DNA of 57,815 bases from Chiloscyllium plagiosum (Eukaryota): assembly GCF_004010195.1 (NCBI RefSeq), contig NC_057755.1, forward strand, positions 7,808,769 to 7,866,583. Reading direction: 5' to 3'. A program made the translations under genes and the position numbers. Below are positions 18,688 through 56,004 of this stretch, one piece after another. How positions within the stretch are numbered: the first letter of the stretch is position 1; every line of letters starts with the position of its first letter. The notes under the pieces are model-generated. The model was not told where the DNA came from. It did no database searches and saw only the letters and a program-made list of their open reading frames with translations.

Positions 18688-19553
18688 TTACGTGACCATT
18701 TGGTGCACGGCATTCTTGAACTTCGCTCTGAACTTGGGCAGAGTCACTGCATAAAATAATGTGTTTGTGCTGCAGCTGAAATCCTTGAGAATTTCTCCGA
18801 CTTGTGGAAAAATGCAGCACTGCCCAATAGATTTTCCATTAATCCCACGGTATATGAAATGTATACCATACATTAACCACAGAAGTATGAAGCTGATGGA
18901 TATGATGAAGAGGGAAATCACTGACTTCCTCCGGCTCTCCATCTCTGCATCTTTGTGACTCCCTCCCTCCCTCTGACCCTTCAGGCTTTTGCGGACTTGA
19001 CTGGCCACTAAAATGTACCTGACCGTCAGAGTATTCATCAACACAATTAACACAAATGGGATGAAAGGGGTTAAAATGTGATTAAACCAGTTGAAACCCA
19101 GCCACTTGGGATCAGTAATGTAACTTGACTTTACTCGGCAGTACCACGGAACTTTGTCAATTATCCTCCTAGGTTCAAACTGAAAATAGAAGGGAATGCT
19201 TTTTGAACAGAGCAGAATGCCGGTTGAGGCCAGAGCCACAGCCAAGGTTTTCTCTGTCCAATATTTTCTCTTCATTTTTTGACAGCAAATGGCCACAAAA
19301 CGATCAAAGGAGAAAAGGACAGTGAACCAGACGGAACAGTCGGTGGCTGCATTCGCCAGGGCAAAAATAGAACTGCACACAGGGGTGATGTCCAGGAAAC
19401 ACTTTGGGAAGTAATAGATCCTCAGTTGATTCAGTATAATGTTCGTGCCAATGAACAGTAGATCTGCAGTTGCCATAGCCAACAGGCATCGCATGGTACA
19501 GGTTGAGAGGCCGCATTTTCCCTGTGCGAGAATAAAAACCAGGAGGACATTAA
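18688..19553 (-). CDS. GPR139/GPR142-like orphan class A GPCR, gene A, exon 2 (end of TM1 to C-terminus)
   Basis: Acceptor ctttctgtctcttgcag|TT AAT GTC; open frame (V)NVLLVFILAQGKCGLSTCTMRCLLAMATADLL...SVWFTVLFSFDRFVAICC...PFVLIVLMNTLTVR...SCSTNTLFY to the stop at 18688. 866 nt = 2 nt + 288 codons, consistent with a phase-1 intron. Confidence 0.92.
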
Positions 19554-19719
19554 CTGCAAGAGACAGAAAGTAAAAAAAGATCTGAAATTATTGATCAAAC
19601 ACTTGCCTTGTCTCCCAATCTTAGGGGGATTAAGCATCGAAATGGATCAGTTGGGAGATGTCAGAGAGTGCATCTAAAAATATCAGCTTGGAGCAGTCAC
19701 TCCTGATATTAAGTAAGTG

Positions 19720-22700
19720 GACAAAGTCAAAAATCGTCTAGGATAAAGTGAGGACTGCAGATGCTGGAGATCNNNNNNNNNNNNNNNNNNNNNNNNNNNN
19801 NNNNNNNNNNNNNNNNNNNNNNNNNNNNNNNNNNNNNNNNNNNNNNNNNNNNNNNNNNNNNNNNNNNNNNNNNNNNNNNNNNNNNNNNNNNNNNNNNNNN
19901 NNNNNNNNNNNNNNNNNNNNNNNNNNNNNNNNNNNNNNNNNNNNNNNNNNNNNNNNNNNNNNNNNNNNNNNNNNNNNNNNNNNNNNNNNNNNNNNNNNNN
20001 NNNNNNNNNNNNNNNNNNNNNNNNNNNNNNNNNNNNNNNNNNNNNNNNNNNNNNNNNNNNNNNNNNNNNNNNNNNNNNNNNNNNNNNNNNNNNNNNNNNN
20101 NNNNNNNNNNNNNNNNNNNNNNNNNNNNNNNNNNNNNNNNNNNNNNNNNNNNNNNNNNNNNNNNNNNNNNNNNNNNNNNNNNNNNNNNNNNNNNNNNNNN
20201 NNNNNNNNNNNNNNNNNNNNNNNNNNNNNNNNNNNNNNNNNNNNNNNNNNNNNNNNNNNNNNNNNNNNNNNNGTGTGACTATATAAGGGTGTGTACATTG
20301 TATTGGGTTTTACCTGTAAAGCGACATGATCTCAAGGTCCCGCCTGAGGCCATTCTCATGGGCACAGAACTTGGCTATCTGCCTTTGCTCGGCCACTCTC
20401 TTGTATATCCTGAAGTCTGCCTTGGTGTGTACTAACTCAAAGATCAGAGGTAGAATGTCCCTTACCACTAAAGTATTCCTGAATGGAGAGGGAGCATCCC
20501 TGTCTGGTTATTATTGAGCGGGTTCCATTCACCCATTGTAGTAGCATCTGCTTTGTCTCACCAATATACCATGCCTCATGGCATCCTTGCCTGCAGCGTA
20601 TGAGATAGACAACATTGGCTGAGTCACTTGAGTACCTAGTAGAAAGTGAGGACTGCAGATGCTGGAGATCAGAGCTGAAAAATGTGTTGCTGGAAAAGCA
20701 CAGCAGGTCAGGCAGCATCCAAGGAGTAGCAGAATCGACATTTTGGGCATAAGCCCATTCCTGAAGAAGGGCTTATGCCCGAAACGTCAATTCTCCTGCT
20801 CCTTTGATGCAGCCTGACCTGCTGTGCTTTTCCAGCAACACATTTTTCAGTTCACTTGAATACCTGCCATGTGCATGGTGGGTGGTGTTCCCACGTGTAA
20901 TGGTAGTATCCATGTTGACACTCTGACACATTAACGTGGTCACCATGACAGGGTTCTACAGTGTTGTGGTTGATGTTGTCCTGAAAGCTGGATAGTTTGC
21001 TGTGAACAACTGTCTGTTTAAGGTTTGGTGGTTGTTTAAAGGCAAGAGGTTAAGGAGTAGGGCAGGTCTTGGTGAGGTGCTCATCCTCATCAATAATATG
21101 TCTGCAGGCTGTGAAGAACATAGAGTAATTTCTCTGTTCCCTGGAAGTACTGGACATGAAGGTTACAATATCTGTCATACCTCATGTCTGTCTCCTGAGG
21201 AAGGCATTATAATTTCTTGCTGTGGCACATTGGACCTGGTGATTGATGATTAAGCGTTGGATCCTGTTCTTATGAGGACATCTTCAGCACTTTCAGGTTC
21301 TGTCACCTTTCTCCTCACCTGAACAGATCCTGTGTATGTGTCGAGCTTGTCCATAAGAGATGGCTGTCCTCATGTGTTTAGGGTGGAATCTCGAGAAGTG
21401 CAGCATTGTGAGGTTATCTGTGGAGTAGAGTGAGGTACTGAGGTGCCTGTTCTTTATGGAGATCCGTGTGTCCAAGAATGAGACAGATACTAAAGAGAAG
21501 TCAGCGTTAAGTCTAATGGTGGGATGAAACTTGTTGATTTCACTATGTAGTTGTTTCAGTGACTCCTCACCATGGGTCCAGAGGAAGAAAATGTCGTCAA
21601 TATATATAGTATATAGTGCTGGTTGGAGGTCCTGTGCCACAAAAAAAAGTCTTATTCAAACTTTTGTTTGTAATTATTGGCATATTAGGGTGCAAATGTG
21701 GTCCCCATGGCTCTTCCATGTGTCTGGATGAAGAACTGGTTGTCAAAGGTGAAGACTTTGTGGTCGAGGATGAAGCAGATGAGTTGTAGGATGATGCTCA
21801 GAGATAGATAGTTGTTGGTATTGAGTACGGAGGCTGCTGCAATGATGCTGCTATCACAGAGGATGTTGGTGTAGAGTGCCAAAACATCCATTGTAATGAA
21901 GAATATTCCTTTATTGACTGGTCCGTGGGTACTGAGTTTCTGCAAGAAATCTGTAGTGTCATGACAGATGCTGGGGTCTCTTATACAATGGGTTTCAAGA
22001 TGGCCTCAACATAGCCAGAGAGATCCTCACACAGGGTTCAGTTACCTGACACGATGGCATGTCCTGTTGGCTTTCTGTATCTTTGGGAGGCAGTAGAAGT
22101 ACTCTGAATGAAAAGTACGGGGGATGAGACTGTGTAGGGAACTCTGAAGAACTGGCTCAAAAGTCTTGATCAATTCGCTTAGTTCATGGGTGTGTTCTTT
22201 GTTTGGATTTATCGGTAGTTGCTGTAGTGTTTCTGGTTGTTCAGTTGTTGGCACACTTCCTTGCAATAGTCTGTTCTATTCTGAGTGACAATGACTCCTC
22301 CATTGTTGCTGGATTGATGACAATTTTGTGATTGGCTTTGAGAGCATGCGTGGCATTGAATTGAGTTTGGGTGATGTTTTTTCTACCTTGTTAGTGTGGC
22401 TGATGAATCTGGCATTTACACATTTCTTGACAACATGGTATATTGGTGAGACAAAGCTGACATTATGACAATGGACGAATGGACTCTGTGGAAGAATCGT
22501 CAAACTGGAATGTTCCATCCCAGTCAGGAAAACTTCAGCAGTCGGGGACACATGGCCTCAGATTTACAGGTGATTGTCCTCCAAGGTAGACTTCAGGATA
22601 CACAACAACGCAGAGTTGCCGAGCAAAGGCTTATAGCCAAGTTCAGTACACACGAGGAGAGCCTTAACCAGGACATTCAGTTCATGTCGCACTACAGGTG

Positions 22701-23559
22701 ACCGCAATAGATTGTATACTCTCTCACACACATTCACATACAAGCGCATGTGCACATACACACACAACACACACAGAAACTCTCTTACATACTCACACTC
22801 ATGCAGACCCACTCTCATGCATGCAATCTCTCAGGGACAAGTGTACGTGTCTGCACACACACACACAAACCCCACTCACATCCATGCAAACACACTCTCA
22901 CAGGCATACATTCCATTACACACATGTACACACACTTTCAAGCACAGACAGCCACACACTTTAAAACACACACACATTCAAACATTCACACTATCTCTCT
23001 TCCACATCATGCACTCACACACCTATAAATCTATGGGGTCAATTTGCATTTGCAGAATTCTACTTGCAGATGCATTCAATTCTGTTCAAAAAGCCCACAA
23101 TCTGTAGGCAGTCAATCCATGTTATATTTTATAAATTCGTACTTTGGAAATAAAACCAGTCTGACTGAAGATTGAAATACATACAGACTCTCATGTCACA
23201 CCTTTAATATATTTTCTGAGTGGAGATGTCACTTTTAAAAAATAAAATTGAGTTATCTCGGTAATGTGACTTGAAAGAAGTTTTGGGATTGACTTATTAA
23301 TGAATTGAAATCCGTAAATTAATTTAAAAGAGGAAAGACTTAACAGCAATCTAGGTTTGTCCAATATATCACATCAGTTGCATGACACTGTGATCTTTTG
23401 CTATAAATTCTGTATCTTATGATCCTGCTCCACGAGCTACCTGACAAAGGAGTAGCACTCTGAAAGCTTGTACTTCCAAATAATCCTATTGAGCTATAAC
23501 CTGGTGTTGTATGATTTTTAACTTTGTCCACCCCAGTCTAACACTAGCACATCCGCATC
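19720..23559. mobile_element. Penelope element in the gene A intron: minus-strand RT+GIY-YIG body (to about 22435) joined to a plus-strand 3' copy (22436-23559)
   Basis: ITMDVLALYT, GRAMGTTFAP, YIDDIF, NVVYLIRC..WYIGETK motifs; flanked by ttaagtaagtg at 19709-19719 and 23560-23570; nested palindromic insert 20638-20851 with 14-bp TSD. Confidence 0.9.
20757..20792 (+). ncRNA. Minimal type I hammerhead ribozyme core (Penelope-derived)
   Basis: CTGAAGA-a-gggc-ttat-gccc-GAAA-CGTC; intact core with palindromic ACGT in place of stem III. Confidence 0.75.
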
Positions 23560-24892
23560 TTAAGTAAGTGAGCCAGGGAATTGACAGACAACAATTTTTA
23601 AGGTGAAAGGCAAGAAGTTTGGACTTGAGGGAAAGGCTTTCATCCAGCGACTAACAGATTTCTGAAATGCACTACCTGGGAGGATGGTTGGGGCTTGAAA
23701 CCTCACAGCCTTAAAAAAAAGGAATTCGATGAGCACTTGATGTGCTTTCCATTTTAAGGCTATGAGTCCAGTGCTGGAAGCTGGGATGATGTTAGATTTG
23801 GTGTAGCTTTGATACGACAAGCTTAATGATGCAGAGGACCTCTTCTGCAGCATTAGGTTTTGTAATTCCAAGAATTGCTTCTGTGAGATAGATTACAAAA
23901 TTAAACATTTTAATGATAAATCAAACATCTGTGGATGCTTGCAACATGAACTGAAACAAAAACAGCTGGAGAAAATCAACAGGTAAGGCTGCATCTGTCG
24001 AGACAGAAACGGAGTTAACATTTTGTGTCTAGAATCACTCTTCATTCTGAAGAAGAGTCACTGGGCTCAAAACGTTAATTCAGTTTTCTCCCCAAGAAAG
24101 ATTGTCATTGCAAACAAAGGACAGGTGTTCCTTTCCAAACAGGAATTGAAGTACAAAGCATTGATATTCATTTACTTTGGAACCTTTGTAGACCGCACTT
24201 AGCATACCAGGTGTATGGTGACCATGCTACAATAACATAACTGTCAAAAATGTAATTATTCGATGGAGAATGCTAACAGAGCTGAGAAAGTTCTATTTTA
24301 TAATGAAAGAGAGAAGACGTCTGTGCCCTGATAAACGGGATATGCTAAATCATTGAATCCCTCAGAGCTTGTCTTGGAAAGTCAACATTTAGCAAATGTT
24401 CCAAACCTGCATATGCATTGACTCAGCAAACAATGCAAACTTCAAATAGAGAAATGTTGTTGTTTTAATGTTTCTCTGTGTTCTCTGACTCAATTACTTT
24501 CAGACTGTGCTTGTCAACAATTTACAAATAAAGAACATAATGCCAAAACCCAACAGGCAGTTCACTCATGCAATTATTTATTGCCATTGATCCAATCCGT
24601 GTGTAATAAAATATAATATAATAAAAATCCAGTCTCTCTGGCTCTCCATTGTGTTCTGATCATGTTAGGGGCAATTAGCATTTAAACTGATAAACTGAAT
24701 AGCCAGTAGTTCATGGAGAGAACGGGTCAACATGCTTTCACATTAACTTTTGAAAAAAAAACCTTCACTTAATAATGAGAATAATTAAAAAAAGTTAAGT
24801 AGTAGAACTCATGAGCACAGATGTTCTAACTCAATTTATTTCCCTCCCTTTGAAGAATGATTTTATTGGAAAAATTATAAAGCTACAAACCC

Positions 24893-25900
24893 TTCTTCAG
24901 GAGGCAGCTACAAGGTAGCCACAGCCCCCTCGACTTCACTTTAACTCTCCTCAATATGTCACTTGGACCGCACGGTGGCTCAGTAGTTAGCACTGCTGTC
25001 TTACAACACCAGGAACCCGGGTTCGATTCCCGCTTCGGGCGTCTGTCTAGAGTTTGTACGTTCTCCCAGTGTCTGCGTCCTTCCACAATCCAAATCTATG
25101 CAGGTCAGGTTATTGCCCATAGTGATCGGTGCATTAGTCAGAGGTAAGTGTAGGGAAATGGGTCTCGTCGGAGTGGACTTGTTGGGCCTCCTCCACAGTG
25201 GAGGGAATCTAATCTTAGGGTGGCACAGTGGTTAGCACTGCTGCCTCACAGCGCCAGAGACCCGGGTTCTTCAGGAGGCAGCTACAAGGTAGCCACAGCC
25301 CCCTCGACTTCACTTTAACTCTCCTCAATATTTCACTTGGACCGCACGGTGGCTCAGTAGTTAGCACTGCTGTCTTACAACACCAGGAACTCGGGTTCGA
25401 TTCCCGCTTCGGGCGTCTGTCTAGAGTTTGTACGTTCGCCCAGTGTCTGCGTCCTTCCACAATCCAAATCTATGCAGGTCAGGTTATGCTAAATTGCCCA
25501 TAGTAATCGGTGCATTAGTCAGAGGTAACTGTATGGAAATGGGTCTGGGTGGGTTATTCGTCGGAGTGGACTTGTTGGGCAGTTTCCACAGTGGAGGGAA
25601 TCTAATCTTAGGGTGGCACGGTGGCACAGTGGTTAGCACTGCTGCCTCACAGCGCCAGAGACCCGGGTTCAATTCCCGACTCAGGCGACTCACTGTGTGG
25701 AGTTTGCACATTCTCCCCGTGTCTGCGTGGGTTTGCTCCGGTTCCCTCCCACAGTCCAAAGATGTGCAGGTCAGGTGAATTGGTCATCGTTTTAGGTTAA
25801 AAAAAGGGGTAAATGTAGGGGTATTGGTGGGTTGAGCTTCAGTGGATCGGTGTGGACTTGTTGGGCTGAAGTGCCTGTTTCCACACTGTAAGTAATCTAA
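24893..25900 (+). repeat. Cluster of HE1 SINEs with a local tandem duplication (offset 374 bp)
   Basis: gaggcagctacaaggtagcc... starts at 24901 and 25275; near-identical diverged SINE copies; a younger full HE1 at about 25612-25900. Confidence 0.9.
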
Positions 25901-25929
25901 TCTACTATCTCATTGAAGAGCAGGCAAAT

Positions 25930-26500
25930 TATAGCAAAGAAAGAGGCCATTCAGCCCACCATATCTGCATCAACTGTATAAACTAGTTACCTAGTATAAT
26001 TCAAATTTCCAGCACCTGGTCTACAGCCTTGAATATTATTTCACTACAGTTGGGGATCCTGGCTCTCTTTAACTGAGTTGAGGCTTGCCACCTGAAACAT
26101 TCTCCCCGTCCCCTCCCCTCCCCTCCCCTTCCACCAAACAGGACAATGAATTCCAGACACATCACCACCTTTTGGATGAAAGCGTTAGCCCTCTTCTCTG
26201 CTATAATTCTTCCAGCAATCAGTCTCACTTTTTATCCCCTGGTAACTGGTTTGCTCCTTTCCGGGTATCAGGGCTCTTTCTAGGCCCTCCTCAGATTGTA
26301 CACCTCAATCACATCACCCGTCATTCTACTCTGTCCTCAGGAAAAGAAACCAAACCCAAACTAGCTTAGGTCAATGCCACTGTAATTTTCAGATGCTGGC
26401 AACATTCCTGTTAATCACGTTTGCATTCGCCTCAGTGCAATTCTATCCTTACTGTTAGGGATGGCCAGACGTCCGCGCAACATCACAGTTGTGAACTGCC
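25930..26500 (-). mobile_element. Old CR1 3' fragment
   Basis: gaggccattcagccc tail (reverse) and NAFIQKVV motif. Confidence 0.6.
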
Positions 26501-28030
26501 CAGTGTCACATGTAGTTCGAGTGTTGCAGGAGATGAGGGAATTTGCATTGACTCGGCTGAGTCCCAGGGTGAGTCGTTGGTAGTTTGGGGAAAGCTGATG
26601 TCAACTTATATCCTGGTCTGGCTATCTGATCAGGCTCTAGGGAATTTATTGGACCTGGAAGGGTGCAGTTAGGAGTAGCTGATCGAAACACGGGGTCAGT
26701 TAATCATTTACTTGGGAGTTAGACTATGTGTTTAATCACGTCTCTTCTGTCTGACAAAAATCAGAATATGGCAGGAGCAGGACCTGAACGCAGCTTGAGG
26801 GATCAGAACCTTATTTGTTTTGGTTTTGAACAAAGTGATCTCTTGTTGAACCGTAAACACGCAATGCTGCAAATATTGCCCAACAAAACAGAAGTCAGTT
26901 GTAAAGGGAAGGATGATAAAATAGAATAAACCAAACTACGTTTTTATAACCCAGATTCAAAGGCAATGAACAATCACTACATGTATAACCAGATTAATTC
27001 CAAATCAGTCTATAAATTGAGAAGAAATCAATCTACCTTTATATCAGATACAAACACCACTTCTGGTTCCAAAAAGAAAGCAACTCTCGTATAATGCTCT
27101 AGCCAGGTTTCCTATATGAAACACTTGGTTAAATGATTTGTGACTTCCATTTTTACAATGTAACTAGGGCTAAAACACAGCTCAGCTTCAATGGACTCAG
27201 TGTTGAGTTACCTCTTCAGGTTTTTAAAAAAATTCCAACACTTCTGGTCTGGGATGAACACAAACTTTTCGCTCCAAGATAATCTAATTGACTAAATCCA
27301 TCATTCCTTTCTCATGAGCACAGATCGATACATCCATCCAGTTCCACTGTCTTCCAAAGACTAAGGGGAATGATTTAAATTTAAAACTGAAATTAAGGTT
27401 TCTCAGTCAAGGGTTTGTTCCTTCAGCACTGATTCCAGAACTCACTAACAAACATTTGAGTCTCCATTAATAACATGCTGAGTTGCAAACAATCGAAAAG
27501 AAACAAAAATTTATTCATACACAGTCATTCAGCCTATAGCCAGGCTTCAAAAGCAGTTTGTAAAAGAAATGGTTGTGGTTACAGAAATACCTTCATGTTA
27601 ACGATTAACTTCAAATGCACAGTGAAGGCCTTCACTTATTTACTCAAACAAAACCAGAACCAAACTCAACCAACATGCTGTTGCATGTTCTGCATAAAAA
27701 AAAAATCAATTGTGTCTCTTACACTTTCTCATCGTGACGGCTTTACTTAATTCCATCGAAACTCTGCAGCCTTCAGTTGAAGTGGAGGTTTCTAGAAGGT
27801 TCCAGAGGCAGATTGGGCTAGCGGAGAGTTCAATTTTCCAAGCAATTTCTGAGGAATCTGCAGTGATGAGATTTCTATTGGGTCCCTGTAATCTGAGGCT
27901 AAATTATGGATCATTTGCCCCTGTGTGAGGGTGACCATAACATGCCCATGTATCATTGTCAGTGGCAGACTGAAACCGCAGGGAAGCCTCAGACAGATTC
28001 ACCACAAATTCAACGGTGCAAGGCACTTAC

Positions 28031-28085
28031 CAGGAATGATTACGATCGGAAAGCTCACATAAAATATTATCCGCACTTGTTGCAT
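28031..28085 (-). CDS. GPCR gene A, coding exon 1 (MQQVRIIFYVSFPIVIIP + G)
   Basis: ATG at 28085, 55 nt (18 codons + 1), donor CCTG|gtaagt. Splicing to 19553 restores TM1 ...IIP-V-N. A paralogous exon exists at 55938-56004. Intron about 8.5 kb. Confidence 0.88.
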
Positions 28086-28620
28086 TTTCGATGCGAATCT
28101 CTTTGTGCAGGCAATCTGTCTCTGTATGACAGACCGACGTAAATAATCCCAAAGCATCTCATTTATACCTCACAGCACCGCCTGGGAATTTTCACTTTAC
28201 GAGGTTCTTCCACTGTTTTTTTAAGAATTTGAACAAAAAAGGTGACGACATGAGTTATTTCCCAATTGAGACAGACCATTTTTAGAACTGAGCTCAATCG
28301 GTGAAAACTAAACTTTGAAAATGCATCTGTGCCAGCATTGATACCCGAACACTATCTGTCCCACTTTGAGACTCATTTTATTTCAGTGCCGTCCTCCATT
28401 TGACTTAAAACATTTTGTAATTAAATTATGTTTGTTGAGTATATCTCTGTGAACTGTTCTCCTCAACTCCAGGATGTATTTTCCCTGTCTAACCGCGACT
28501 GTTCTGTGACGTGATGATTGTTGGTTACCTGAGGTGACACATTATTAGTTTTAACAAATTCAACATCGTAACAAAATTCTTCGCCATGCACGGATAAGCT
28601 GTCTCAATTCATTATGACCC
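28086..28620 (-). promoter_or_regulatory. 5' UTR and TATA promoter of GPCR gene A (TATAAAT at 28167-28161)
   Basis: aggTATAAAT about 75 nt upstream of the ATG; the block is alignable by eye to 56005-56520, including the TATA. Confidence 0.65.
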
Positions 28621-29827: not shown

Positions 29828-30443
29828 TGTGCTATGTTCCAGGGCATCCCCCGTAAGCATTTCAAGAAAGTAACCGAGACCTTACTTTGCGGTATGTTTT
29901 AAGCAGGCGTCAGGCAGATATTCCAGGAGAGATGCAGCTGGTCAAATCACTTCAGTTTTAATCAAAACAGAATTTACTTACACTATTACCGAATGAAGCA
30001 GAAACAAACGAGAATATAGAATAACTTAACCCATCCGACAACCCAGTCGATTACCCCAACTAAGTGATGCTGTTCCAAATACCGGCAGAAATCCCCATAA
30101 ACACCTCTTAGCAACGAAGGAAAAAAAATCAGACACATCTTCTTTTCGGAGAGGTGTCCAAGAGAGGGAGGATCATCATAGATCTGCTTCTTTGGGTCTT
30201 GCTGCTTCAAACTCTGACTGCCGAAACCATAGCAAACGGAGGAAAGCTGACCTGGGTGAACTTGTGCACGTGCTTTCTTTAACCGTGAAAACCTTTTACC
30301 TGAGGCAGTGTCTGTTAGCAATAATCGAAACAGCTTTAAAAACGTACAAATCTAAACCTTGCAGAATCGCTCCTTTTCTGACTTCTGAGAAAAAAAAAGG
30401 CCCGAGCACAGCATAACCTTGATAAAGGAGCAGCATCGTCACA
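29828..30443 (-). mobile_element. Solo LTR of the Gmr1-like gypsy family inserted in a minus-strand CR1
   Basis: tgtgctatg...catcgtcaca termini; alignable to 44255-44729 and 47384-47970; TSD not resolved. Confidence 0.75.
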
Positions 30444-34005: not shown

Positions 34006-35199
34006 TGCACTGACCCTCCGACAGTACGGCACTCCCTCAACACTGACAATCCGACAGTGTGGCGCTCCCTCAGTACTGTCCCTCCAACAGTGCAGCACTA
34101 TTTTGTTGTTCCACCTGTACTGTATTATTGTGACACTTAGAGCAGAGCAGCTCTATGGCATCTACACAACTTTGTTGCAGGGTCCGAAAGCCCTTACACA
34201 ACAGGATAATCTGAACAGAAACAGGAAAAATAAAATTTCACATTTTGCCCAGGAATATCCTTTACAGATACTCAATCTCAATGAAGTGTCAAGCTCTCTG
34301 ATTTTTCCTCTGAACTTTTTTTGCTGCAAAGATATTCTTCCTTCATGAAAATAAATATTTATGTACATGTACAGTGAATGAAGCCGTTCTGGTCTATACT
34401 TTCTTTACATACAGAGAACAAATTGATCCTTGACGTTCACCATTCTCTATATTTACAACCAAACTCTTGGCATTTAGCCGAAGCATCAGCCCAATACACA
34501 GAGTTTTATTGAAAATTATACTTTTCTCACAAGAACAAATCGTGTACAGTTAATGAAGCTACTCAGATCAATACTGTCTTTACTTAGAATGCCACTCTCC
34601 TTAAATTTAATTTCTAACTTAACTGGCTCTTTGCAGGATTTATGGCTTTGTGACATTTTTGCAGGACTGATCACCCAAGCCTCTTTTCAGTTTTGACAGT
34701 TTGAGAAAAGTCGACACAAACTCTCACGGCATAGATACTTTGCAAATGATTCTCCTGAGGTTGCGTTTTCCTGTATATGACCAGATTTCTCTATTGAGCT
34801 GACCCAACTTTTCTGCCCTGGAAACATGGTGGTTCAGAACTGTATTCAACCTATTACTGGCTCCTGGCCTTTTTCTCTGTATGTCATAAAACTAACATTT
34901 ACTCCATCAGTTATCACTATAGATAGCTGACTAAGTCGAAAGTCACAGGCCTTCTTGGAAATGATACCTTTAGTTCACCGTCCCAGATGACTTCCTGTCC
35001 ATTAAAAAATATCCTTTCCCAGAACTGAATCCAAACCTCTATTTTATCTCGCCTTCAAAATCCAACATACGAATGACAATCTGTCAGACACCACCTTCCA
35101 TGTGTTCAGATAGAAGCTGGTATCTCTCAGCAACAATTGTTACTCAAATCCACCTGATCTCACTTCCAGAATCTAAAGAATCAATGGCCATAAGTAAAT

Positions 35200-37541: not shown

Positions 37542-38679
37542 AAGTTTCCTCCTTCCTCTAGTTCATGCCCTCAGTGATGAGGCCTTGCGGCAGGGAAATC
37601 ACTCCCATTCTCTGAGCTTGACCCTCAGTCTTTCACCGTTTGTTCAGTTTTCCAAGCTGGAAATTGGGGGATAGTGCTGATTCCTGTGAGCGATTGCCTT
37701 ACCCAGTCCTTCCTTCGTTCCCTGACAGGGAAAACTGCCACCTTCTTTTTTTAAATTTCCCGTAACTTTAATGATAAGGATTGAAACTAGAAATGGGCTG
37801 AACAGTTTTGGATTAGCTTTGGTGCCCCACGAGGATCAGGGTCTGGGTCTCGGGTGGGGACAGACAAAGTATCATCAACTCTGACTAACTGTTACTCCTC
37901 TCCCAAGGAGCCACGTTGAGCTGAATTGCCGTCTTGCACCTTCCGTCATTCCACGTTTCCCAGCTTCTGTTGTTGAGCTATTGGTGTAAAGCCCTAATTC
38001 CCTCACACCATCTAATGTGACATTGAGAGCTCACTGCCAATTGTATCCGTGCCAAGTATCAGAGGCTGTGCACTAGTAAACCTGTGTAAACATGCCCCCT
38101 GCCTCAGGGTTCATTCTGCAGGTTTGGAAGCCTCGTTTTCTCTGTTGGTGATGAGGTTAACAGCGTGAGAAAATGAGAAGACAGAGTAACATGGAAAATG
38201 GGAGCAGGAGTAGGCCAGTTGGTTCTTCAAGCCCGCTCCACCATTCAGTAACATCAGGGTTGTTCTTCCAACTCAGTCACCTTTTCCTATTTTATCCCCA
38301 TACACTTGAACCCAGTTAGCACCAAGAACTGTAACTAACTCCCATTTAAAAACATTTAATGTTTAGGCCCAAAGTGTTTTCTGTGGCACATGCTCCCACA
38401 GGCTCACCACTCTCTGATGAAAGGATTTCTCCTCTTCTCTGTCTGAAATGATTTAATCTGTATCCTTGAACTTTGATCCCTGGTTTTGGACTGCCGAAAC
38501 TGATGCACTGTTTACTTTCTCAGGGGGAGAATGATCGGTTGTGCCTGATCATCACTGAGTCACAGTGTCCCTCATTTTCTAGATCTGAAAGAGCTGGGCT
38601 TCAAAACTCACACATGAGATTTAACACATGAAGAGATATTACGTTGCACAGCAGCTCCAAATTTGCACTCTGCCCTCAG

Positions 38680-39125
38680 TACTAATATTCTAACAATGCA
38701 ATATTCCCTCAGCACTGACACTCCGGCAGTGCAGCGGTCCCTCAGTACTGATCCTCCGACACTGAGACGGTCCCTCACCATTGACCCTCAGATAGCGTGG
38801 CGCTCCCTCAGTACTATCCCTCTGACAGTGTGTCACTCCCTTTGTACTGACCCTCTGACAGTGCAGCACTCCCTCAGTACTGATCCTCTAACACTGCTAC
38901 ACTCCCTCAGTACTGACCTTCTGATGGTGCAGCGCTCCTTCAGTACTGACCCTCTGACACTGTGGTACTCCCTCAGTACTGACCCTTCGACACTGTAGCA
39001 CTCCTCAGTACTGACCCTCTGACAGTGCGGCACTCCATCAGTACTGATCCTCTGAAAGTGCGGCACGTCCTGCGTACTGACTCTCCAATAGTGCGGCAAT
39101 CCCACAGCACTTGCCCTTTGACAGT
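38680..39125 (+). repeat. 33-bp minisatellite (cactccctcagtactgaccctctgacagtgcag)
   Basis: About 13 tandem units; ORF track shows the 11-aa period LSTDPLTVxHS. Confidence 0.9.
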
Positions 39126-39425
39126 CTATGCTTTTAGACTCAACTGTTTTATTGTTTCATCTCTCTTTTGTAATTCAGCTAATTTCTCTGAATTAATTGT
39201 ATTCACTATGCCCCCAACTTGCTCTTGTTTTCTTTCAACCACTTGATCAAATGTAGTCTCTGATAATTGCACTTCAATTTCCGTATCTTTAATCCTTGAT
39301 GTCTCCTCCTGCTTCAAACTGTGAGTTTGTGACCTGGTTACCAAGCAGTCAGGGAAAATCTTGGAATGTACTTCCTGAAACATTTCAGTTGCCTGATTTT
39401 CCACTGGCTTTTCAACCACAGTAGG
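39126..39425 (-). mobile_element. Gmr1-like gypsy pol fragment (protease-integrase linker)
   Basis: IFPDCLVTRSQ...KLAELQKRDETIKQL, homologous to 45470-45750. Confidence 0.75.
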
Positions 39426-39427
39426 CT

Positions 39428-41035
39428 ACTAGACTAGGTAGGATTGAGGTTCACAAGGAAGAGGTATTAGAGAGCCTGCAGAGTGTGAAAATATATAAGT
39501 CCCCTGGGCCGGATGGGATTTATCCTAGGATCCTCTGGAAAGCCAGGGAGGATGTAGCTGAGCCTTTGGCATTGATCTTTAAATCGTTATTGTCTACAGG
39601 AATAGTGCCAGAAGACTGGAGGATAGCAAATGTGGTTCCCCTGTTCAAGAAGGGGAGCAGAGACAACCATGGTAATTATAAACCAGTGAGCCTTACTTCA
39701 GTTGTTGGTAAAGTGTTGGAAAAGGTTATAAGAGATATGATTTATAATCATCTAGAAAAGAATAATTTGATTAGGGATAGTCAGCACGGTTTTGTGAAGG
39801 GTAGTTTGTGCCTCACAAACCTTATTGAGTTCTTTGAGAAGGTGACCAAACAGGTAGTTGAGAGTAAACCGGTTGATGTGGTGTATATGGATTTCAGGAA
39901 GGCGTTCGATAAGGTTCCCCACAGTAGGTTAGTGTACAAAATGCGGAGGAATGGGATTGTGGGAGATTTCGCAGTTTGGATAAGTAATTGGCTTGCTAAA
40001 AGAAGACAGAGGGTGGTGGTTGATGGGAAATGTTCACCCTGGAGTCCAGTTACCAATGGTGTACTGCAAGCGTCGGAGTTGGGTCCACTGATGTTCGTCA
40101 TGTTTATAAACGACCTGGATGAGGGCGTAGAAGGGTGGGTTAGTAAATTTGCAGATGACACTAAGGTCGGTGGAGTTGTGGCTAGTGACGAAGGATGTTT
40201 TAGGTCACAGAGAGACATAGATAAGCTGCAGAGTTGGGCTGAGAGGTGGCAAATGGAGTTTAATGCGGACAAGTGTGAGGTTATATGCTTTGGACGGAGT
40301 AACCGGAATGCAAAGTACTGGGCTAATGGTAAGATTCTTGGTAGTGTAGATGAGCAGAGAGATCTCGGTGTCCATGTATACAGATCCTTGAAAGTTGGCA
40401 CCCAGGTTGACAGGGTTGTAAAGAAGGTATACAGTGTTTTAGCTTTAATTACTTGAAGGGTCGAGCTCTGGAACCATGAGGTTATGCTACAGCTGTACAA
40501 AACTTTGGTGTGGCCGCACTTGGGGTATTGTGTACAGTTCTGGTCACTACATTATAAGAAGGATGTGGAAGCTTTAGAAAGGGTGCAGAAGAGATTTACT
40601 AGGATGGAGGAAAGGTCTCACGAGGAAAGGTTGAGGGACTTGAGGCTGTTTTCGTTAAAGAGAAGAAGGTTGAGAGGTGACTTAATACAGACATTTAAGA
40701 TAACCAGAGGGCTAGATAGAGTGGACAGGGAGAGCCTTTTTCCAAGAATGGTGACGGCGAGCACGAGGGGGCACAGCTTTAAATTGAGGGGTGATAGATA
40801 TAGGACAGATATCAGATGTAGTTTCTTAACTCTGAGAGTAGTAAGGGCATGGAATGCTTTGCCTGCAACGGTAGTAGATTCGCCATCTTTAAGTACATTT
40901 AAGTCGTTATTGTACAAGCATATGGACGTATATGGAATAGTGTAGGTTAGATGGGCTTCAGATTGGTATGACAGGTCATTGCAACATCAAGGGCCGAAGG
41001 GCCTGTATTGCGCTGTAATGTAATTTTCTATGTTA
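39428..41035 (+). mobile_element. 5'-truncated CR1/HER1 LINE (RT domain; premature stop at 40454-40456)
   Basis: KSPGPDGI, NYKPVSLTS, DFRKAFDKVPH, KFADDTK; 3' tail to tctatgtt. Confidence 0.95.
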
Positions 41036-42035: not shown

Positions 42036-44253
42036 AGACCTGGAGAGGGAAAGGAACAGTTACCAAGGGAAGGAATTTAATTGGGGAAAAGGAAATTAGG
42101 ACGCTATCAGACAGGAGTTGGGAAGTACAAAATTGGGAGCAATTGTTCCACAGAAAGGGCACAGCAGACATGTGGAGTCTACTGATGGAGCAGCTGTTGC
42201 GAGTGATGCACCAATTTGTTCCTCTGCGACAGGCAAGAAGGCGTAAGATTAAGGAGTCTTGGATGAGAACAAGGGAGCTTCTCGTCAAAAGGAAGAAGGC
42301 AGCCTACATAAGATGGAGGAAGCAAGGATCTAGCACAGCTTTAGAGGATTACAGGCTTACTAGAAAACAGCTCAGAAAAGGATCTGAGAGGAGCTAGGAG
42401 GGGGCATGAAAAGGCTTGGCAGGAAGGATTACCGAGAACCGAAGGCATTTTTGTTATACGTGAAGAATAAGAGAATGATCAAGGAGAAGGGAGGACCGGA
42501 CAGGGATAGCGTAAGGAACTTATGTGTGGAGTCTAAGCAAGAAACAGGAAGTCCTAAATGTGTGTTTTGCTTCGGTTTTCACGAAGGAAAGGGACCTTGT
42601 TGTGAATGAGAACTTTGGGGAGCTGTGAAACAGGCTTTAACAGACCAAGATTGATAAAGTTGATGTGATGGAAATTTTGGCAAACATTAAGATTGAGCCA
42701 GATCAGATTTATCTATGTTGATTCGGGAAGCAACAAAGCAGGTTACTAAGCAGCTGGTGAAGATCTTTGTTTCCTCATTCTCTACGGGGGTCGTAGAGGA
42801 GGATTGGAGGGAGGCGAATGTTGTTCCTCTTTTTAAAAAGGGGAATAGGGAAATCCCTGGCAATTACAGACCAGTCCGTCTTATGTCTGTGGTCAGCATG
42901 GCTTTGGAAAGAATTTGAAGGATAGGATTTATGATTATTTGGAAATGCATAGCGTGATTAAAGGCAGTTAGCATGGCTTTGTGAGGTGTAAGTCATGCCT
43001 CACAAATCTTATTGAGTTCTTTGAGGAGGTGACAAGACAGGTCGATGAAGGTTGAGCAGTGGGTGGGGTGTATCTGGACTTCAACAAGGCATTTGATAAG
43101 GTTCCTCATGGTAGGCTCATTTATAAAGTCAGGAGGGATGGGATACAGGGAGACTTGGCTATTTGGATTCAGAATGGGTTGGCTGACAGAAGGCAGACAG
43201 TGGTTGTAGATGGAAAGCATTCTTCCTGGAGGTCAGTGTTGAGTGGTGCCCCAGAGGGCTCTGTTCTTGGGCCTTTGCTCTTTGCAGCTTTTATAAATGA
43301 CTTGGATGAGGAGATTGAGGTGTGGGTTAGTAAATTTGTCGATGATGCAAAGGTTGAAAGTACTGTTGAGAGTATCGAGGGCTACTGCAGGCTGCAGCGT
43401 GACATAGACAGGATGCAGAGCTGGGCTGAGAAATGGCAGATGGAGTTCAACCTAAATAAATGCCAAGTGATGCAGTTTGGAATGTCAAACTTGAATGCTG
43501 ATTATCCAATTAGAGACAGGATTCTTGACAGTGTGAACGAACAGAGGGATCTTGGTGATAAAGTGCATATATCCCTCAAAGTTGCCGCCCAAGTGGATAG
43601 GGTTGTTAAGAAAGTATATGATGTTTTGGCTTTAATTAACAGGAGGATCTGTTTAACAGCCATGGGTTTTTGCTGCAGCTCTCCAAGACCCTGGTGCGAC
43701 CACACTTGGGGTATTGTGTCCAGTTCTGGTTGCCCGACAATAGGAAAGATATAGAGGCTTTGGAGAGGGTGCTACGAAGGTTTACCAGGATGATTCCTGG
43801 GCTGGAGGGCTTTTCTTATGAAGAGATGCTGACTAAGTTCGGACTTTTCTCTCTGGAAAGAAGGAGGAGAAGAGGTGACCTGATAGAGGTATACAAGGTA
43901 ATGAGAGGCATGGATAGAGTTAATAGCCGGAGACTTTTCCCAGGGCAGGATTGACTGGCACGAGGAGTCATAGTTTTAAGATGTTAGGAGGAAAGTGTAG
44001 AGGAGACGTCAGTGGTAGGTTCTTTACACAGAGAGTTATGAATGCATGGAATGGAATTCCAGTGGTGGTGGTGGTGGAAGCAGAGTCATTCAGGAGATTT
44101 AAGTGACTGTTGAACATGCATTTGGGCAGGAGTGAATTGAGGGGTGCATAGGTTAGGTTATTTTATTTTAGATTAGGCATAATCCTCGGCATAACATCAT
44201 GGGCCGAAGGGCCTGTCATGTGCTGTACTTTTCTATGTTCTATATTCTATGTT
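42036..44253 (+). mobile_element. 5'-truncated, decayed CR1/HER1 LINE
   Basis: NYRPV, DFNKAFDKVPH, GSVLGPLLF, KFVDDAK; (tatgttc)n tail. Confidence 0.93.
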
Positions 44254-47200: not shown

Positions 47201-47970
47201 ATTTTCAATTGAATTTTAGCAATCTCTAAAGATTCTAGGGGCGTTTCCAACAAATTCCAGACAGCACTGTTTAATCCAACACCCAGAAGAAAACGACACT
47301 AATAACTTCCACTCACACCCTTTGAGTACGACAACCCGAACCCAATTTGGAACTGTATAGCAAATCCCACACAGTGCCATGATCTATTATGCATCAGGCC
47401 ATAACCGCTCAAAATGTTTCAAGAAGATAGCTAAAAACCTAACTTTTTCTATTGTTTTAATCAGGTGTATGGTGGAAATTCCAGGAGTAGTGCAATTGGC
47501 CCAATCATTCGGTTTGAAACAAAGCAGAATTTATTTACATATGAACAAAAGAGAACCGAATATAGAATAGCATATATGAAAACCAATTGGCTCTATCACA
47601 ACTTAATGATGCTGTTGAAAATACTTGCGACATCTCCACCGACACCCCTTTGGCCAACAAAGGTTCTTGCAGAAGAGATTCAAAGAGAGACAGTCAGTCA
47701 CGAAAGGTCTGTTGAATCCACAAGGTATTCTCCCAGGCAGTTTTCTTTGACGAACAATTCCAAACCAACTACTTGGTAAAACCAATCCAAACTAAACCTT
47801 AAACTGGGAAATTAACCGCTCCCCTCTCACGTGCAAGTGTTTAAAAAGAAAGAATTCAAAACCTTCTCTAGTACATACTTCCAGAAATATCGGAATCTCT
47901 GCCTTTATGAGACCTTTTTGAAAAAAAAAGCCAAGGACAACGTAACCTTGTTCAAGGAGCAACATTATTA
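44255..47970 (-). mobile_element. Decayed Gmr1-like Ty3/gypsy element: 5' LTR (about 47970-47384), gag, protease, integrase, truncated at a partial LTR (44729-44255)
   Basis: PKFEGKDVEA...VAEQLKWP; decayed zinc knuckle FHGNKVGHIKSQ; LRHAGSSQSL protease; HEVTTGGH..RKT; SDQGSKF...ESQGALETWHQTLK integrase core. Confidence 0.88.
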
Positions 47971-49799: not shown

Positions 49800-49898
49800 A
49801 TGAGAGAAAGACGAAAAGAGAGAGAGAGGAGACAGAGAGAGAGAGAGATGTAGAAAGAATAAAACAGAGACACAGAATAACAGAGGGAGAGAGAGAGA

Positions 49899-49936
<38 letters not shown>

Positions 49937-51598: not shown

Positions 51599-52455
51599 TT
51601 ACGAGACCACTTGTTGCACTGCATTCCTGAATTTCGCTCTGAACTTGGACAGTGTTACTGCATAAAATAATGTGTTCGTACTGCAGCTGAAATCCTTGAG
51701 TACGTATCCAATTTGTTCATAAGCACCAATAGTTGTTCTATTAATGACATAGTATAAGAAACTTGTACCGTACAGTAACCACAGAAGTATGAAGCTGATG
51801 GATATGGTGAAGAGGGAAATCACTGACTTCTTTCGGTTTTCCATCTCTGGGTCTTTGTGAGTCTCTCCATTGCTCTGACCCTTCAGAGTTTTGCGGACTC
51901 GACTAGCCACTAAAATGTGCCTGACTGTCAGAGTGTTCATCAACAGAATTAACACGAATGGGACGAAAGGTGTTAAAATGTTATCAAACCAGTTATATCC
52001 CTGCCACTTGGGATCAGTAAAAAAACTTGACTTTGTTCGGCAGCCCCACGGAACATTGCCAATTATCCTCTCAGGTTGAAACCGAAAATAGAAGGGAATG
52101 TTTACTGAACAGAACAGAATGCTAATTGTAGCTAGAGTCAGAGCCAAGGTTTTCTCTGTCCAATATTTTCTCTTCAGTTTCTGGCAGCAAATGACCACAA
52201 AACGATCAAAGGAGAAAAGGACAGTGAACCAGACGGAGCAGTCTGTGGTTGCATGAATCAGAACAAAGACAGCACTGCACACAGGGGTGAGGTCCAGGAA
52301 ATTTCTTGGGAAGTAATAATTATTGAGTTGCCACAGTATGACGTTCACGAGAATGAACAGTAGATCCGCCATTGCCATGAACACCAGGCATCGCGTTGTG
52401 CAATTAGAGAGGCCACACTTTCCACGTGCGAGAACCAAAATCACGACTGAATTAA
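51599..52455 (-). CDS. GPR139/GPR142-like orphan class A GPCR, gene B, exon 2
   Basis: Acceptor ccttctatctattacag|TT AAT TCA; frame (V)NSVVILVLARGKCGLSNCTTRCLVFMAMADLL...FSFDRFVVICC...SCSTNTLFY...QQVVS*. 857 nt = 2 nt + 285 codons. The N-terminal 63 aa of ORF 51599..52645 are intron read-through. Confidence 0.92.
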
Positions 52456-53324
52456 CTGTAATAGATAGAAGGTAAAAGGAAAATTGGAAATTGTTGATAA
52501 AACGTTCTCTGCGTCTGTCCAGATAGCAATGGATGTTCTTCGTACTGAAATGCCTTAGTTGGGATGGGTCTGAGGTCAAATCTAAAAATGACAGTATAAA
52601 CTTGTGTGTGTGTTTTTGGAGGGGCAGCGAATTGACGGACAACAAGGCTGCATAATTTTCAGGTGAAAGTCCTGAGCATTAGAGGGTATTTTAAGATAAA
52701 GCTTTCACTGAAGAATAGTGGGTTGCTCGAATGCACTGCTTGGGAGCATAGTGAAGAAGGAGACCTAAAAACTTTAACCAGTCCTTCGGTGAGCATTCAG
52801 GATCACTTTTCAGGACATCTTCAACTGAAGAAGTTTCGCTGGACTCAAGACGTTAACTATGCATTCTCCCCACAGATGCCACCATAGCAGCAAGCTTTCT
52901 TCGGTAATTTATGCTTTTCTTTGAAATGTTTCATTAAGGCTGCAAATTGTTGTCTTATCCTGCTTTTTAAGATTATGGTTGACTGCCTAAGATTCAAGAA
53001 TTCGGAGAAGATGTAGTCGATTTAGCCCTTTGAACTTGTACTACCATTGAAATTGTGGTGGCAGATTCTCAACAGAAATGCTTACTTTCTGTCCATTCCC
53101 CTTTGTGCCTTTAAGATCACAAATCACATCTGTCTCACACCCAAAAAACAAACTCAAAGTTTGAGGGAGAAAGATGGAATGTTGGAGACTGGAAGCATTA
53201 TCTCTTCCTCCATCACATGACCATCAGGGTCTGGATCAACTTGAGGATCATGACACTGGAGTTGCATCCCAAGACTCGGTGTTTGAAAGCTGTCTGTTTC
53301 CTGCACTCTAACCATCCGCTTATG

Positions 53325-53963
53325 ATTAGATTAGATTACCTACAGTGTGGAAACAGGCCCTTCGGCCCAATAAGTCCACACCGACCCTCCGCAGAGCAAC
53401 CCACCCTGACCCATTCCCCTACATTTACCCCTTCACCTAACACTACGGGCAATTTAGTATGGCCAATTCACCTAACCTGCACATTTTTGGACTGTGGGAG
53501 GATACCGGAGCAAACCGGGCAGCACGGTGGCACAGTCGTTAGCACTGCTGCCTCACAGCGCCAGAGACCTGGGTTCAATTCCCGACTCAGGCGACTGACT
53601 GTGTGGAGTTTGCACATTCTCCCCGTGTCTGCGTGGGTTTCCTCCGGGTGCTCCGGTTTCCTCCCACAGTCCAAAGATGTGCACGTCAGGTGAATTGACC
53701 ATGCTAAATTGCCTGTAGTGTTGGGTAAATGTAGGGGTATGGATGGGTTACGCTTCGGCGGGTCGATGTGGACTTGCTGGGCCGAAGGGCCTGTTTCCAC
53801 ACTGTAAGTAATCTAATCAAATCTAATCTAATCTAATCAAACCCACGCAGACACGGGGAGAAATGTGCAAACTCCACACAGACAGTTGCCTGAGGTGGGG
53901 AATTGAACCCGGGTCTCTGATGCTGTGAGACAGCAGTGCTAACCACAGTGCCACCGTGCCACC
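53325..53963. mobile_element. Minus-strand HE1 SINE with a nested plus-strand HE1 (53517-53837)
   Basis: TSD caaacc at 53511-53516 and 53838-53843; the host SINE resumes with acccacgcagacac. Confidence 0.9.
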
Positions 53964-54099
53964 CAAGCTTTTTTGTCAGGAGATCATTTTCTCGTCAGCA
54001 ATGTCTCACATAGCACTTTGCAAATGTGTTCTGGAACTACAGAGTCTATATGCAAAAATGTCGTTGCAAATACAAATAGGAGTGCCCCTAATTTGAATT

Positions 54100-54840
54100 C
54101 AGAGTCATACAGAACAGAAAGAGACCCTTGTCTGCAACTCATCCATGCCGACAAGATATCCTAAATTATTCAAGACCTATTTGCCTGCATTTGAACCACA
54201 TCCTATTCATGTACCCATATAGATGTCTTTTCAATATTTTAAGTGTACCAGCCTCCACTAATTCCTCTGTCAGCTCATTTCATAAACCCATCACCCTCTG
54301 CACAGAAATGTTGCTTTTAAATCTTTACCCTATCAACTTAAGCCGATGTAATGGGGGAAAAGAAACATCGGCTTGTCCCCATGTCCGTGCTCCTCATGAA
54401 TTTGTAAACCTCTGTTAGGTTACCCCTCTTCCTCTAATGCTTCAGTAATGAACTGTACAATTGCAACATGACGTCCCAAATCCTGTACTTAATTCACTGC
54501 GAATGAAGTCTAGTTTGCTAAACATCGTCTTTAACATTCCGTCTGCCTGCAACTCACCTCTCTCTGTTCGACAAAACTCCCCAAGGCCCGACCATTCTAT
54601 GTATCAATCCTGCCCTGCTTTGCCTGACCAAAGTGCAACGTCCTGTATTTATCTAAATTAAACTCTGTCTGCGCATTCTATGTCCATTGGCCAGGTGATC
54701 AAGGTGCTGCTCTCCTCTAATGTAACCTTTTGATGTATCCAATCACTTATTCTGATGTCATCTGCAAATTTGCTAAAAGATCACTACTATATTGGCATTC
54801 AAACATTTACATAAATGATGAAAAGGTAATGGAACCAACA
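54100..54840 (-). mobile_element. Old CR1 3' fragment
   Basis: Reverse tail gagtcatacag...agaccct and tcatctgcaaattt (KFADD). Confidence 0.75.
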
Positions 54841-54999
54841 CGCGGCATACTGCTGTTTGATAAGTTTGAAACACAACTGTTTAAATAGTGGTGTGCATTG
54901 AATTCTACATCCCTAAAGTTGTGAAATGTCTCAGCAGAGTGCAAAATTCCCTCGACATCGGAAAGGAGGGAGACAGAATCCAATACATTACAATACAGT

Positions 55000-55225
55000 A
55001 AGTACTACATGCATTTGGAAACTAGAGCAGACCGTTGTACTCCTCTCTGGTAACAAAGAGATGGCTGGTGGTGGTGCAATCTGAATGTCTTGTCCCTCAG
55101 CCAATGACAGAGATTGAGAAGTAGAATCCATCAATGGTAACCTCAACCCGTGCAAGAATTGGACGCACACTGTTAGCATCACGCTGTATTGCAAAGTAGC
55201 TATCCAGCCAATTGAGCTAACCGAC
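55000..55225 (-). mobile_element. tRNA-derived SINE (same family as 5955-6910)
   Basis: Minus-strand head ggttagctcaattggctggata...gatgctaacagtgtg. Confidence 0.65.
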
Positions 55226-55937
55226 GGCAGAACACCACAGTGCACATTTAAATGAAAATAATAACCGCAAGTTGGTCAGAAGGGTGATTTTCGAAAGATT
55301 CCTTGGAAAAGAATGGATGCAAATGCGATTCTTGCATTTGGGAGCTCAGAGGGACAGATTACAAATATGTAAAATAGCGTTAACAGGGCAACAAAGCCTC
55401 TTTCAGACTGGCGTTCATTTCCAGAAGGGACTTGAAATATAAAGAGTTAAGATTCATCTACGATGGGAGCATGCTTAGTTTACCTGATCGATTTCTAGTA
55501 AACATAGCACATCAGCATGACTTGATGCACTGGACAATATATAATTATACGATGGAGAAAGATTACTGAACTGACAAAGATTTGTTTAATCATTAAGGGC
55601 ACATGCCACTATCTAAACTCTCTCTGTTAACATAATGATTAACTTCAGAGACACAGAGAAGCACGCCGGTTAATTACTTAAAAACCAGAACGAAACTCAC
55701 CCTAAAGGTTATAGCACTTACTGCATAAAATTTCCATGAATTATCCAGTGGGAAATTGAATTGGTAAGCATTTTCTGCTGAGTCAGCGATGCTGGGAACC
55801 TGTGACCTCAATCTAAATCACTGATTGTCTTCCCCTGTATGACGGTTGTCACAGCACGTACCACTGTCAATGGGAGAGTGAAATTGTGGACGAACCTCAA
55901 ACAGATTCACATAAATTCAGTGGTGGAAGGCACTTAC

Positions 55938-56004
55938 CAGGAATTGTTATAATTGGAATGATCACGTAACATATTTTCCGTGCCTGATGAATTAACTGAT
56001 ACAT
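55938..56004 (-). CDS. GPCR gene B, coding exon 1 (MYQLIHQARKICYVIIPIITIP + G)
   Basis: ATG at 56004, 67 nt (22 codons + 1), donor CCTG|gtaagt, phase matches the acceptor at 52455; flanks align with the gene A exon 1 region. Confidence 0.88.

Follow-up and report, generated by a model that had tools for sequence, protein, structure and literature searches.

The stretch of DNA considered here, hereafter the window, comprises 57,815 nucleotides (nt) of the genome of the shark Chiloscyllium plagiosum (NC_057755.1, positions 7,808,769 to 7,866,583). A six-frame scan of the window places in it two intact, minus-strand, two-exon genes for class A G-protein-coupled receptors (GPCRs), genes A and B. 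In gene A, the coding part of exon 1 (28031..28085; 55 nt, 18 codons plus 1 nt) runs from the ATG to a GT donor, a phase-1 GT-AG intron of 8,477 nt follows (19554..28030, with an assembly gap of about 500 N inside it), and exon 2 (18688..19553) continues as an open frame from its AG acceptor, through the second half of transmembrane helix (TM) 1, to the stop, with a match to the Pfam domain 7tm_1 (E 5e-16). Gene B is built alike, with 67 nt of coding exon 1 (55938..56004; 22 codons plus 1 nt), a phase-1 GT-AG intron of 3,482 nt (52456..55937) and an open exon 2 with its AG acceptor (51599..52455; 7tm_1, E 2e-19). Splicing at the GT-AG sites yields proteins of 306 (gene A) and 307 (gene B) amino acids without internal stops, which bears out the two complete genes with a shared phase-1 intron that a preliminary description of this DNA had reported. 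In both genes the intron sits in the codon preceding Asn1.50 of TM1, and 7tm_1 is the sole Pfam domain (E 0.01).

Genes A and B carry all of the class A hallmarks N1.50, D2.50, the C3.25-C45.50 pair, D/E-R3.50, W6.48 and N7.49-Y7.53, and these hardly vary across 44 aligned intact copies of the family to which the two genes belong (the 27 nearest and 17 sampled), in which Pro7.50 has become Thr and Pro6.50 is mostly lost. Modelled with AlphaFold from 103 sequences, exon 2 of gene B is predicted to form seven helices and a two-strand extracellular loop (ECL) 2, with a pLDDT of 84; the model's top Foldseek matches, at 15-21% identity, are ghrelin, neurotensin, motilin, galanin and chemokine receptors. 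This model suggests a generic likeness to peptide receptors, and the small-molecule class of ligand that had been proposed is not thereby supported. The two genes had also been described as a tandem pair. They are indeed adjacent by position, but they are not mutual closest paralogues: they share 70% amino acid identity, each has closer paralogues elsewhere, and gene B is 79% identical to a copy 7.2 Mb distant, so that a direct duplication of A into B is unsupported. In a self-alignment of the window, the exon-2 blocks are 80% identical over 1,035 columns and the exon-1/promoter blocks 66% over 753 columns, the second copy of the gene B exon-1 block being 27879-28592, which contains exon 1 of gene A. 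Both genes sit within a run of at least eight family copies on C46, at 7.8-8.2 Mb. Close paralogues on C16 and C95484 have a C-terminal tail about 70 residues longer than that of the window genes.

Several lines of evidence show that this family is very large. Searched as an exact 20-nt pattern, the TM3 motif has 1,743 matches in the genome; an independent exact pattern for the TM7 motif has 1,282, and the control has a single match in each case. In a protein search of the genome 137 of 7,809 candidates were scored, all 137 at E 1e-96 or better. The lineage expansion supposed in the preliminary description is therefore real and far larger than supposed, and the motif counts together with the scored loci exclude a family of only one or two copies. 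Two non-overlapping lists, chosen by score, comprise 256 individually scored loci, of which 229 have no stop over 820 nt or more, 161 of them on C1-C51; adding the position-picked sample described next gives a floor of at least 177 stop-free main exons on chromosomes. That sample of 40 chromosomal loci (30 from a sub-pattern and 10 from the TM3 list, non-random, exon 2 only) contains 17 intact exon 2s, 15 broken ones and 8 with assembly gaps, and the median identity among the 17 intact copies is 45%. It leads to an estimate of about 400-500 intact exon 2s for the chromosomes, roughly bounded by 220 and 750. The sub-pattern itself has 116 matches, 62 on C1-C50 and 38 listed on unplaced contigs; the remaining 16, not individually listed, follow the unplaced ones in contig order. 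A total of about 2,900 loci, calculated from the 43 of 71 TM7 matches that are paired with a TM3 match, includes fragments, assumes independent motifs and serves as a rough upper guide, and a recapture figure of 2,737 intact genes was discarded since it was based on one recapture from score-biased lists. Copies concentrate on C46, C37, C44, C48 and C8 and at chromosome ends. Hundreds of clustered copies, with many pseudogenes among them, are what a multigene family of the chemoreceptor type shows.

The family extends to other cartilaginous fish. At E 1e-5, 1,798 protein clusters (90% identity) are retrieved across species, and all 120 of those listed come from sharks and rays; the closest named proteins are from Hemiscyllium (79%) and Chiloscyllium. 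Skates and Callorhinchus also carry members, the chimaera member being 46% identical to genes A and B. In sharks, rays and Callorhinchus, the proteins that RefSeq names 'probable G-protein coupled receptor 139' are this family itself, under an automatic label.

True GPR139 is a different gene. A GPR139 motif has one match in the genome, on C21, and since the control pattern also has one, the frame was verified: it is 93-95% identical to other elasmobranch GPR139 and 85% identical to human GPR139, although no exon 1 was found within 40 kb upstream of it. GPR142 exists in other shark species. Members of the family are 19-26% identical to GPR139 and GPR142. A cluster of the family at the chromosome end (C21, 59.2-60.4 Mb) is only about 0.5 Mb away from the true GPR139 (C21, 58.73 Mb); with so many clusters, this proximity may be due to chance. 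Among 1.84 billion representative sequences, a search returned 120 at E 1e-30, and the distant full-length relatives among the 30 looked up by name are coelacanth, salamander, teleost and unnamed proteins. Among these searches a further lineage emerged, a conserved GPR139-like gene of sharks, bony fish, amphibians, turtles and squamates (52-66% identity among named full-length matches), with no mammal or bird among the 120 matches listed. Unlike the family, this gene, to which a coelacanth and a catshark protein belong, is not expanded; its single copy in this genome lies at C26:36600769-36601743 and is 84% identical to that of the catshark. The window genes are 25-30% identical to it (the family overall, 25-32%), and with the orthologue on C26 they are ruled out as its orthologues. 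Genes A and B, GPR139 and the GPR139-like gene have in common the phase-1 intron before Asn1.50. Two GPR139-like models are fused to TMEM183A, which suggests TMEM183A as a neighbour of that gene.

In a 62-row tree, GPR139 and GPR142 form one clade (100/100), the GPR139-like proteins another (100/99) and the family a separate one (100/100), with which a salamander protein groups at 100/99; the family, the salamander gene, the GPR139-like gene and an anchovy protein come together at 99/96. The anchovy protein is a further long-branch lineage near the GPR139-like gene and the family. Within the family, old subfamilies are common to sharks and rays. The root of this tree is uncertain, because the outgroup rows do not form one clade and long branches meet. 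Free trees make the GPR139-like gene the sister of the family plus the salamander gene, and an approximately unbiased (AU) test on 29 rows, with a quick tree, does not reject a grouping of the family with GPR139/142 apart from the GPR139-like gene (p 0.065). The salamander gene is found in Pleurodeles, axolotl and Lissotriton (one 90% cluster of five); the notion that the family has no relative outside cartilaginous fish is ruled out by its 100/99 grouping. Its protein matches 119 scored loci at 29-37%, none of them outstanding, as is expected of a gene that is co-orthologous to the whole family.

Genes A and B, called GPR139-like in the preliminary description, are not orthologues of GPR139: their nearest relative in the tree is the salamander gene, followed by the conserved GPR139-like gene. 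With a single true GPR139 on C21, 19-26% identity and a separate clade, one-to-one orthology with GPR139 is ruled out. The databases merge three gene lineages under the GPR139 name, namely GPR139, the GPR139-like gene and the expanded family. The family does share features with GPR139 and GPR142, which are class A orphans activated by L-Trp and L-Phe (PDB 7VUG-7VUJ): the S-x-W-x-T motif in TM3, W6.48, a TM7 motif without Pro7.50 and, as seen for GPR139, the intron position and phase. It differs from them in its Cys3.25-Cys45.50 pair and its longer ECL2 and intracellular loop 3, which GPR139 lacks, and in that Pro6.50 is mostly missing. Whereas GPR139 is a single-copy gene conserved at 85% identity from shark to human, the family is expanded.

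The ligand pocket points in the same direction. Activation of GPR139 depends on F3x33, H5x43, W6x48 and N7x38 (PMC5430874) and also on R6x51 (PMC8807744). Measured against the residues given in these two sources, genes A and B retain W6x48 only, having lost F3x33, H5x43, R6x51 and N7x38, and the Trp/Phe-site positions vary across the 44 intact copies. Because the nearest relatives are the salamander gene and the GPR139-like gene and these residues are not kept, the close tie to amino acid sensing of the GPR139 type that had been suggested for these genes is unsupported; the loss of four of the five residues, the low identity and the presence of both GPR139 and the GPR139-like gene elsewhere in the genome likewise set genes A and B apart from GPR139. 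Asp3.37 is present in all 44 copies, and Cys3.25 and Cys45.50 in nearly all. Variability is higher at the pocket positions than at helix positions on the intracellular side (p 0.002 and 0.006).

Selection was measured on 25 paralogues, that is, the 30 nearest loci minus one without the motif, two broken copies and two near-duplicates. Omega is 0.61 overall, and a likelihood-ratio test (LRT) of M2a against M1a gives 69, with 6% of sites at omega 3.2; all ten sites above 0.95 lie in the extracellular half, and about half of all sites are under purifying selection (omega 0.16). When the protein is split by half, the LRT is 63.0 for the extracellular and 0.0 for the intracellular part, which is the combination of ligand-face diversification and a conserved signalling side that characterises chemoreceptors. 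The LRT is 31.9 once the gappy ECL3 region is removed, and 17 wider copies give an LRT of 20.1 at an omega of 0.33. The chemoreceptor-like evolution that had been proposed is therefore upheld by the pseudogenes, the clusters and the extracellular positive selection.

The promoters of the family offer a further clue. The TATA promoters noted previously are present, with TATAAA starting at 28167 in gene A (28162..28167, minus strand) and at 56085 in gene B (56080..56085, minus strand), 135-147 nt before the donor in both. A TATA box at the same spacing recurs in the family: at the family spacing from an exon-1 donor there are 59 matches against 19 for the control, and family exon 1s make up 21 of the 30 retrieved. 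A putative O/E (EBF)-like element lies about 20 nt upstream of the TATA box, at 28178..28187 in gene A and 56097..56106 in gene B (both minus strand), each matching the O/E consensus at 6 of 8 positions. In the first promoter set this element beats all 45 background windows. All 12 held-out promoters, 8 of them from the window genes' own subfamily, score 5-7 of 8, with a mean of 6.0 against a background maximum of 4.25, and 11 subfamily representatives score 5.55 against 3.62 when shuffled, none of 5,000 composition shuffles scoring as high. The element is thus real and conserved in the TATA-anchored members; EBF as the factor that binds it is a guess from the motif. O/E sites together with a TATA box are a feature of odorant-receptor promoters. 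The TATA spacing is not universal, since one subfamily lacks it: an exon-1 pattern chosen without reference to TATA has 256 matches, the first 30 loci of which belong to one C8 subfamily with no TATA box 90-190 nt from the donor. In this large subfamily, which lies mostly on C8, exon 1 has about 44 codons, as against 19-23 in most TATA-anchored members, and is preceded by a variable number of repeats of about 36 nt; in some copies these stay in frame and would be translated as a series of N-terminal units. The minimal N-terminus ascribed to these receptors therefore holds for genes A and B and does not extend to the C8 subfamily.

Evidence from RNA comes from relatives of the window genes. A probable RNA run labelled as another organism contains a 657-nt contig that is about 90% identical to gene B exon 2 and continues at the acceptor into coding sequence of the exon-1 type, which is splicing of a close relative and not of gene B itself. 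No run had read depth in intron bins, and no RNA run is listed as holding the exact stretch of the window. Two probable bulk RNA runs, with unlabelled tissue, contain several different paralogues as contigs (5 and 11).

Taken together, the observations establish the size of the family, its birth and death of copies, its ancestry apart from GPR139, and a conserved cell-facing half opposite an outward-facing half under positive selection. Vertebrate chemoreceptor families generally form large clustered repertoires, include pseudogenes, undergo diversifying selection on the side that meets the ligand and often have a short N-terminus. In its clusters, pseudogenes and outer-face selection, and in the short N-terminus of many members, the family resembles the expansions of OR, TAAR, V1R, V2R and MRGPR/FPR. 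It differs from OR, TAAR, V1R/ORA, V2R and MRGPR/FPR in having a coding intron and a match to Pfam 7tm_1 only; the intron and the sole 7tm_1 match (E 0.01) rule out membership in OR, TAAR or V1R by sequence, and its origin in the GPR139/sex-peptide/FMRFamide receptor group is unlike that of OR, TAAR, V1R and V2R. A further comparison is with the srw genes of nematodes, chemoreceptors that derive from peptide receptors, and with similar expansions of FMRFamide/sex-peptide-type receptors in other invertebrates. The srw genes belong to the same wider group, as neighbouring Atlas clusters and GPR139 proteins carry the Srw domain PF10324, but they represent an independent expansion, and PF10324 occurs in only 1 of the 120 family proteins listed.

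We favor the hypothesis, to which we give a probability of about one half on the sequence evidence, that the family is a candidate chemosensory repertoire of several hundred class A receptors, with genes A and B as intact members. One old gene, apparently kept as a single conserved copy in salamanders, would have been released from a role of the neuropeptide-receptor type and would have multiplied in sharks, rays and chimaeras. Each copy is predicted to bind different outside molecules while all would signal through a shared G protein, and the predicted sites of expression are the olfactory epithelium or other chemosensory ones. The polar pocket with Asp3.37, the TM3-ECL2 disulfide and the beta-hairpin ECL2 would suit peptides or charged small molecules carried in the water as ligands. 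By kinship with GPR139, which couples to Gq/11 or Gi/o (PMC12208981), coupling to one of these would be expected. We hold more tentatively, and regard as possible though doubtful, a stronger version in which the family is an undescribed major class of vertebrate olfactory receptor, independently recruited from the GPR139/sex-peptide/FMRFamide group. In sharks and rays no chemoreceptor family would then be larger, and it would be several times the size of all their known receptors for smell and taste combined.

A number of points weigh against a chemosensory role. The pocket is not significantly more variable than other positions of the extracellular half (p 0.11 and 0.09), and the selection results come from a custom codon-model script that used scaled M0 branch lengths and no gene-conversion screen. 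The promoters share ancestry, and it was by eye that the O/E-like motif was first spotted. B-cell genes and many neuronal genes are likewise under the control of EBF, which therefore cannot separate olfactory from B-cell or other neuronal expression. The coding regions of OR, TAAR and V1R genes are not split by introns, unlike those of this family. Single-cell runs, with unlabelled tissue, gave 2 of 13.0 million and 0 of 8.3 million reads on gene B exon 2 at 85% likeness. In the available part of PMC11979771, no GPCR is among the 50 genes most specific to a brain-plus-olfactory library from catshark, an absence weakened by the dilution that a dispersed family would undergo there. Finally, immune receptor families show the same evolutionary pattern.

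The last point leads to the main rival, which we consider on balance unlikely: the receptors may serve immune or barrier sensing on leukocytes, mast-like cells or epithelial sentinels, and detect microbial or parasite peptides as mammalian MRGPRs or formyl-peptide receptors do. Size, turnover and extracellular selection would be the same, the modelled peptide-receptor-like fold would suit such ligands, EBF is also a B-cell factor, and the paralogues assembled from the two unlabelled bulk runs could come from such cells. The portion of PMC8455134 available reports that cartilaginous fish lack MAS1 and its relatives. Against this, NF-kB and interferon-stimulated response element consensus sites show no enrichment at a fixed position in 24 upstream regions, and the gene name is absent from one 4,750-character supplement of a nurse-shark spleen single-cell paper, which is a weak test.

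Mostly neutral growth of copies, in duplication-prone chromosome ends and small chromosomes, would yield redundant receptors for one endogenous ligand. The broken copies (15 of 32 assessable in the sample), the high omega of 0.61, the crowding at chromosome ends and on small chromosomes, and the location of about half of the motif matches on unplaced contigs, where they are possibly allelic duplicates, fit such growth. It is nevertheless improbable: purifying selection acts on about half of the sites, positive selection on the extracellular half alone, and the family has been retained in sharks, rays, skates and a chimaera. More improbable still is a reproductive or species-recognition system, in which receptors of gonad, sperm or oviduct would follow fast-evolving seminal or pheromonal peptides: the wider group holds sex-peptide/MIP, proctolin and FMRFamide receptors (PMC12208981), and positive selection is compatible with sexual co-evolution, but hundreds of copies in old subfamilies of sharks and rays exceed the known ligand sets of this kind. 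That the genes are shark copies of GPR139/GPR142 sensing L-Trp and L-Phe is very improbable, for the shared intron position and phase, a best solved-structure match of one paralogue to GPR139 (E 2e-10), the nearby C21 cluster and the unrejected AU topology stand against a true GPR139 present once, 19-26% identity and the lost pocket residues. With gene B a PDB sequence search found no GPR139 at E 0.001, and GPR139 is not among the Foldseek matches listed. The chemosensory, immune and reproductive explanations share one mechanism and differ in cell type; tissue expression decides among them.

The surroundings of the two genes are rich in repeats. Long interspersed nuclear element (LINE) reverse-transcriptase fragments (RVT_1) lie between and beside the genes at 39425-40945, 43056-43754 and 57006-57815, and RVT_1 is matched by 3 of the 6 window frames tested; the first fragment, with open stretches of 343 and 162 codons and one stop between them, looks fairly young. 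Degenerate 33-bp satellite arrays occur at 9511-9817, 34008-34099, 36574-36947 and 38673-39125, and a 26-bp array lies at 4982-5137 beside an assembly gap; within the window, neither promoter is adjoined by either type of array. The segments 47453-47663 and 29895-30120, one of which lies 1.7 kb upstream of gene A, are 69% similar over about 220 nt in the same orientation and may be a repeat or the remnant of an old duplication. Positions 1-510 are GC-rich and of low complexity, with a (GA)n run, and may be the promoter or first exon of a gene nearby. Rfam has no match anywhere in the window.

In the open full-text literature, a scope outside which most subscription papers lie, we found no paper that describes this family. 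Term searches found it unmentioned in PMC7677710, PMC10620051, PMC11979771 and PMC13113109, and the gene name was not found in the readable supplementary files of PMC10529500, PMC8455134 and PMC11589584. The proteins themselves are already in RefSeq under the GPR139 name; the large family is real, surprisingly big and not GPR139. An 'Orphan 139-like' group tabulated earlier, reportedly going back to Yun et al. 2015, may be the conserved single-copy gene rather than the shark expansion. Table 1 of PMC5207463 gives this group as a family whose relationships are unclear.

Cartilaginous fish have been described as having a relative paucity of GPCRs (PMC8455134), and the catshark as having 65 chemosensory genes in total (PMC6368271). 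The intact main exons in this one shark, at least 177 by listing and about 400-500 by estimate, overturn the paucity of GPCRs, whatever the function of this family. The analysis also separates three lineages that databases name GPR139 alike, and the salamander gene provides a single-gene handle on the ancestral ligand of the shark family. If the receptors are expressed on immune cells, the oldest lineage that has adaptive immunity would turn out to possess a new sensor system. If they are expressed in the nose, they would offer an answer to how sharks smell well with few known receptors.

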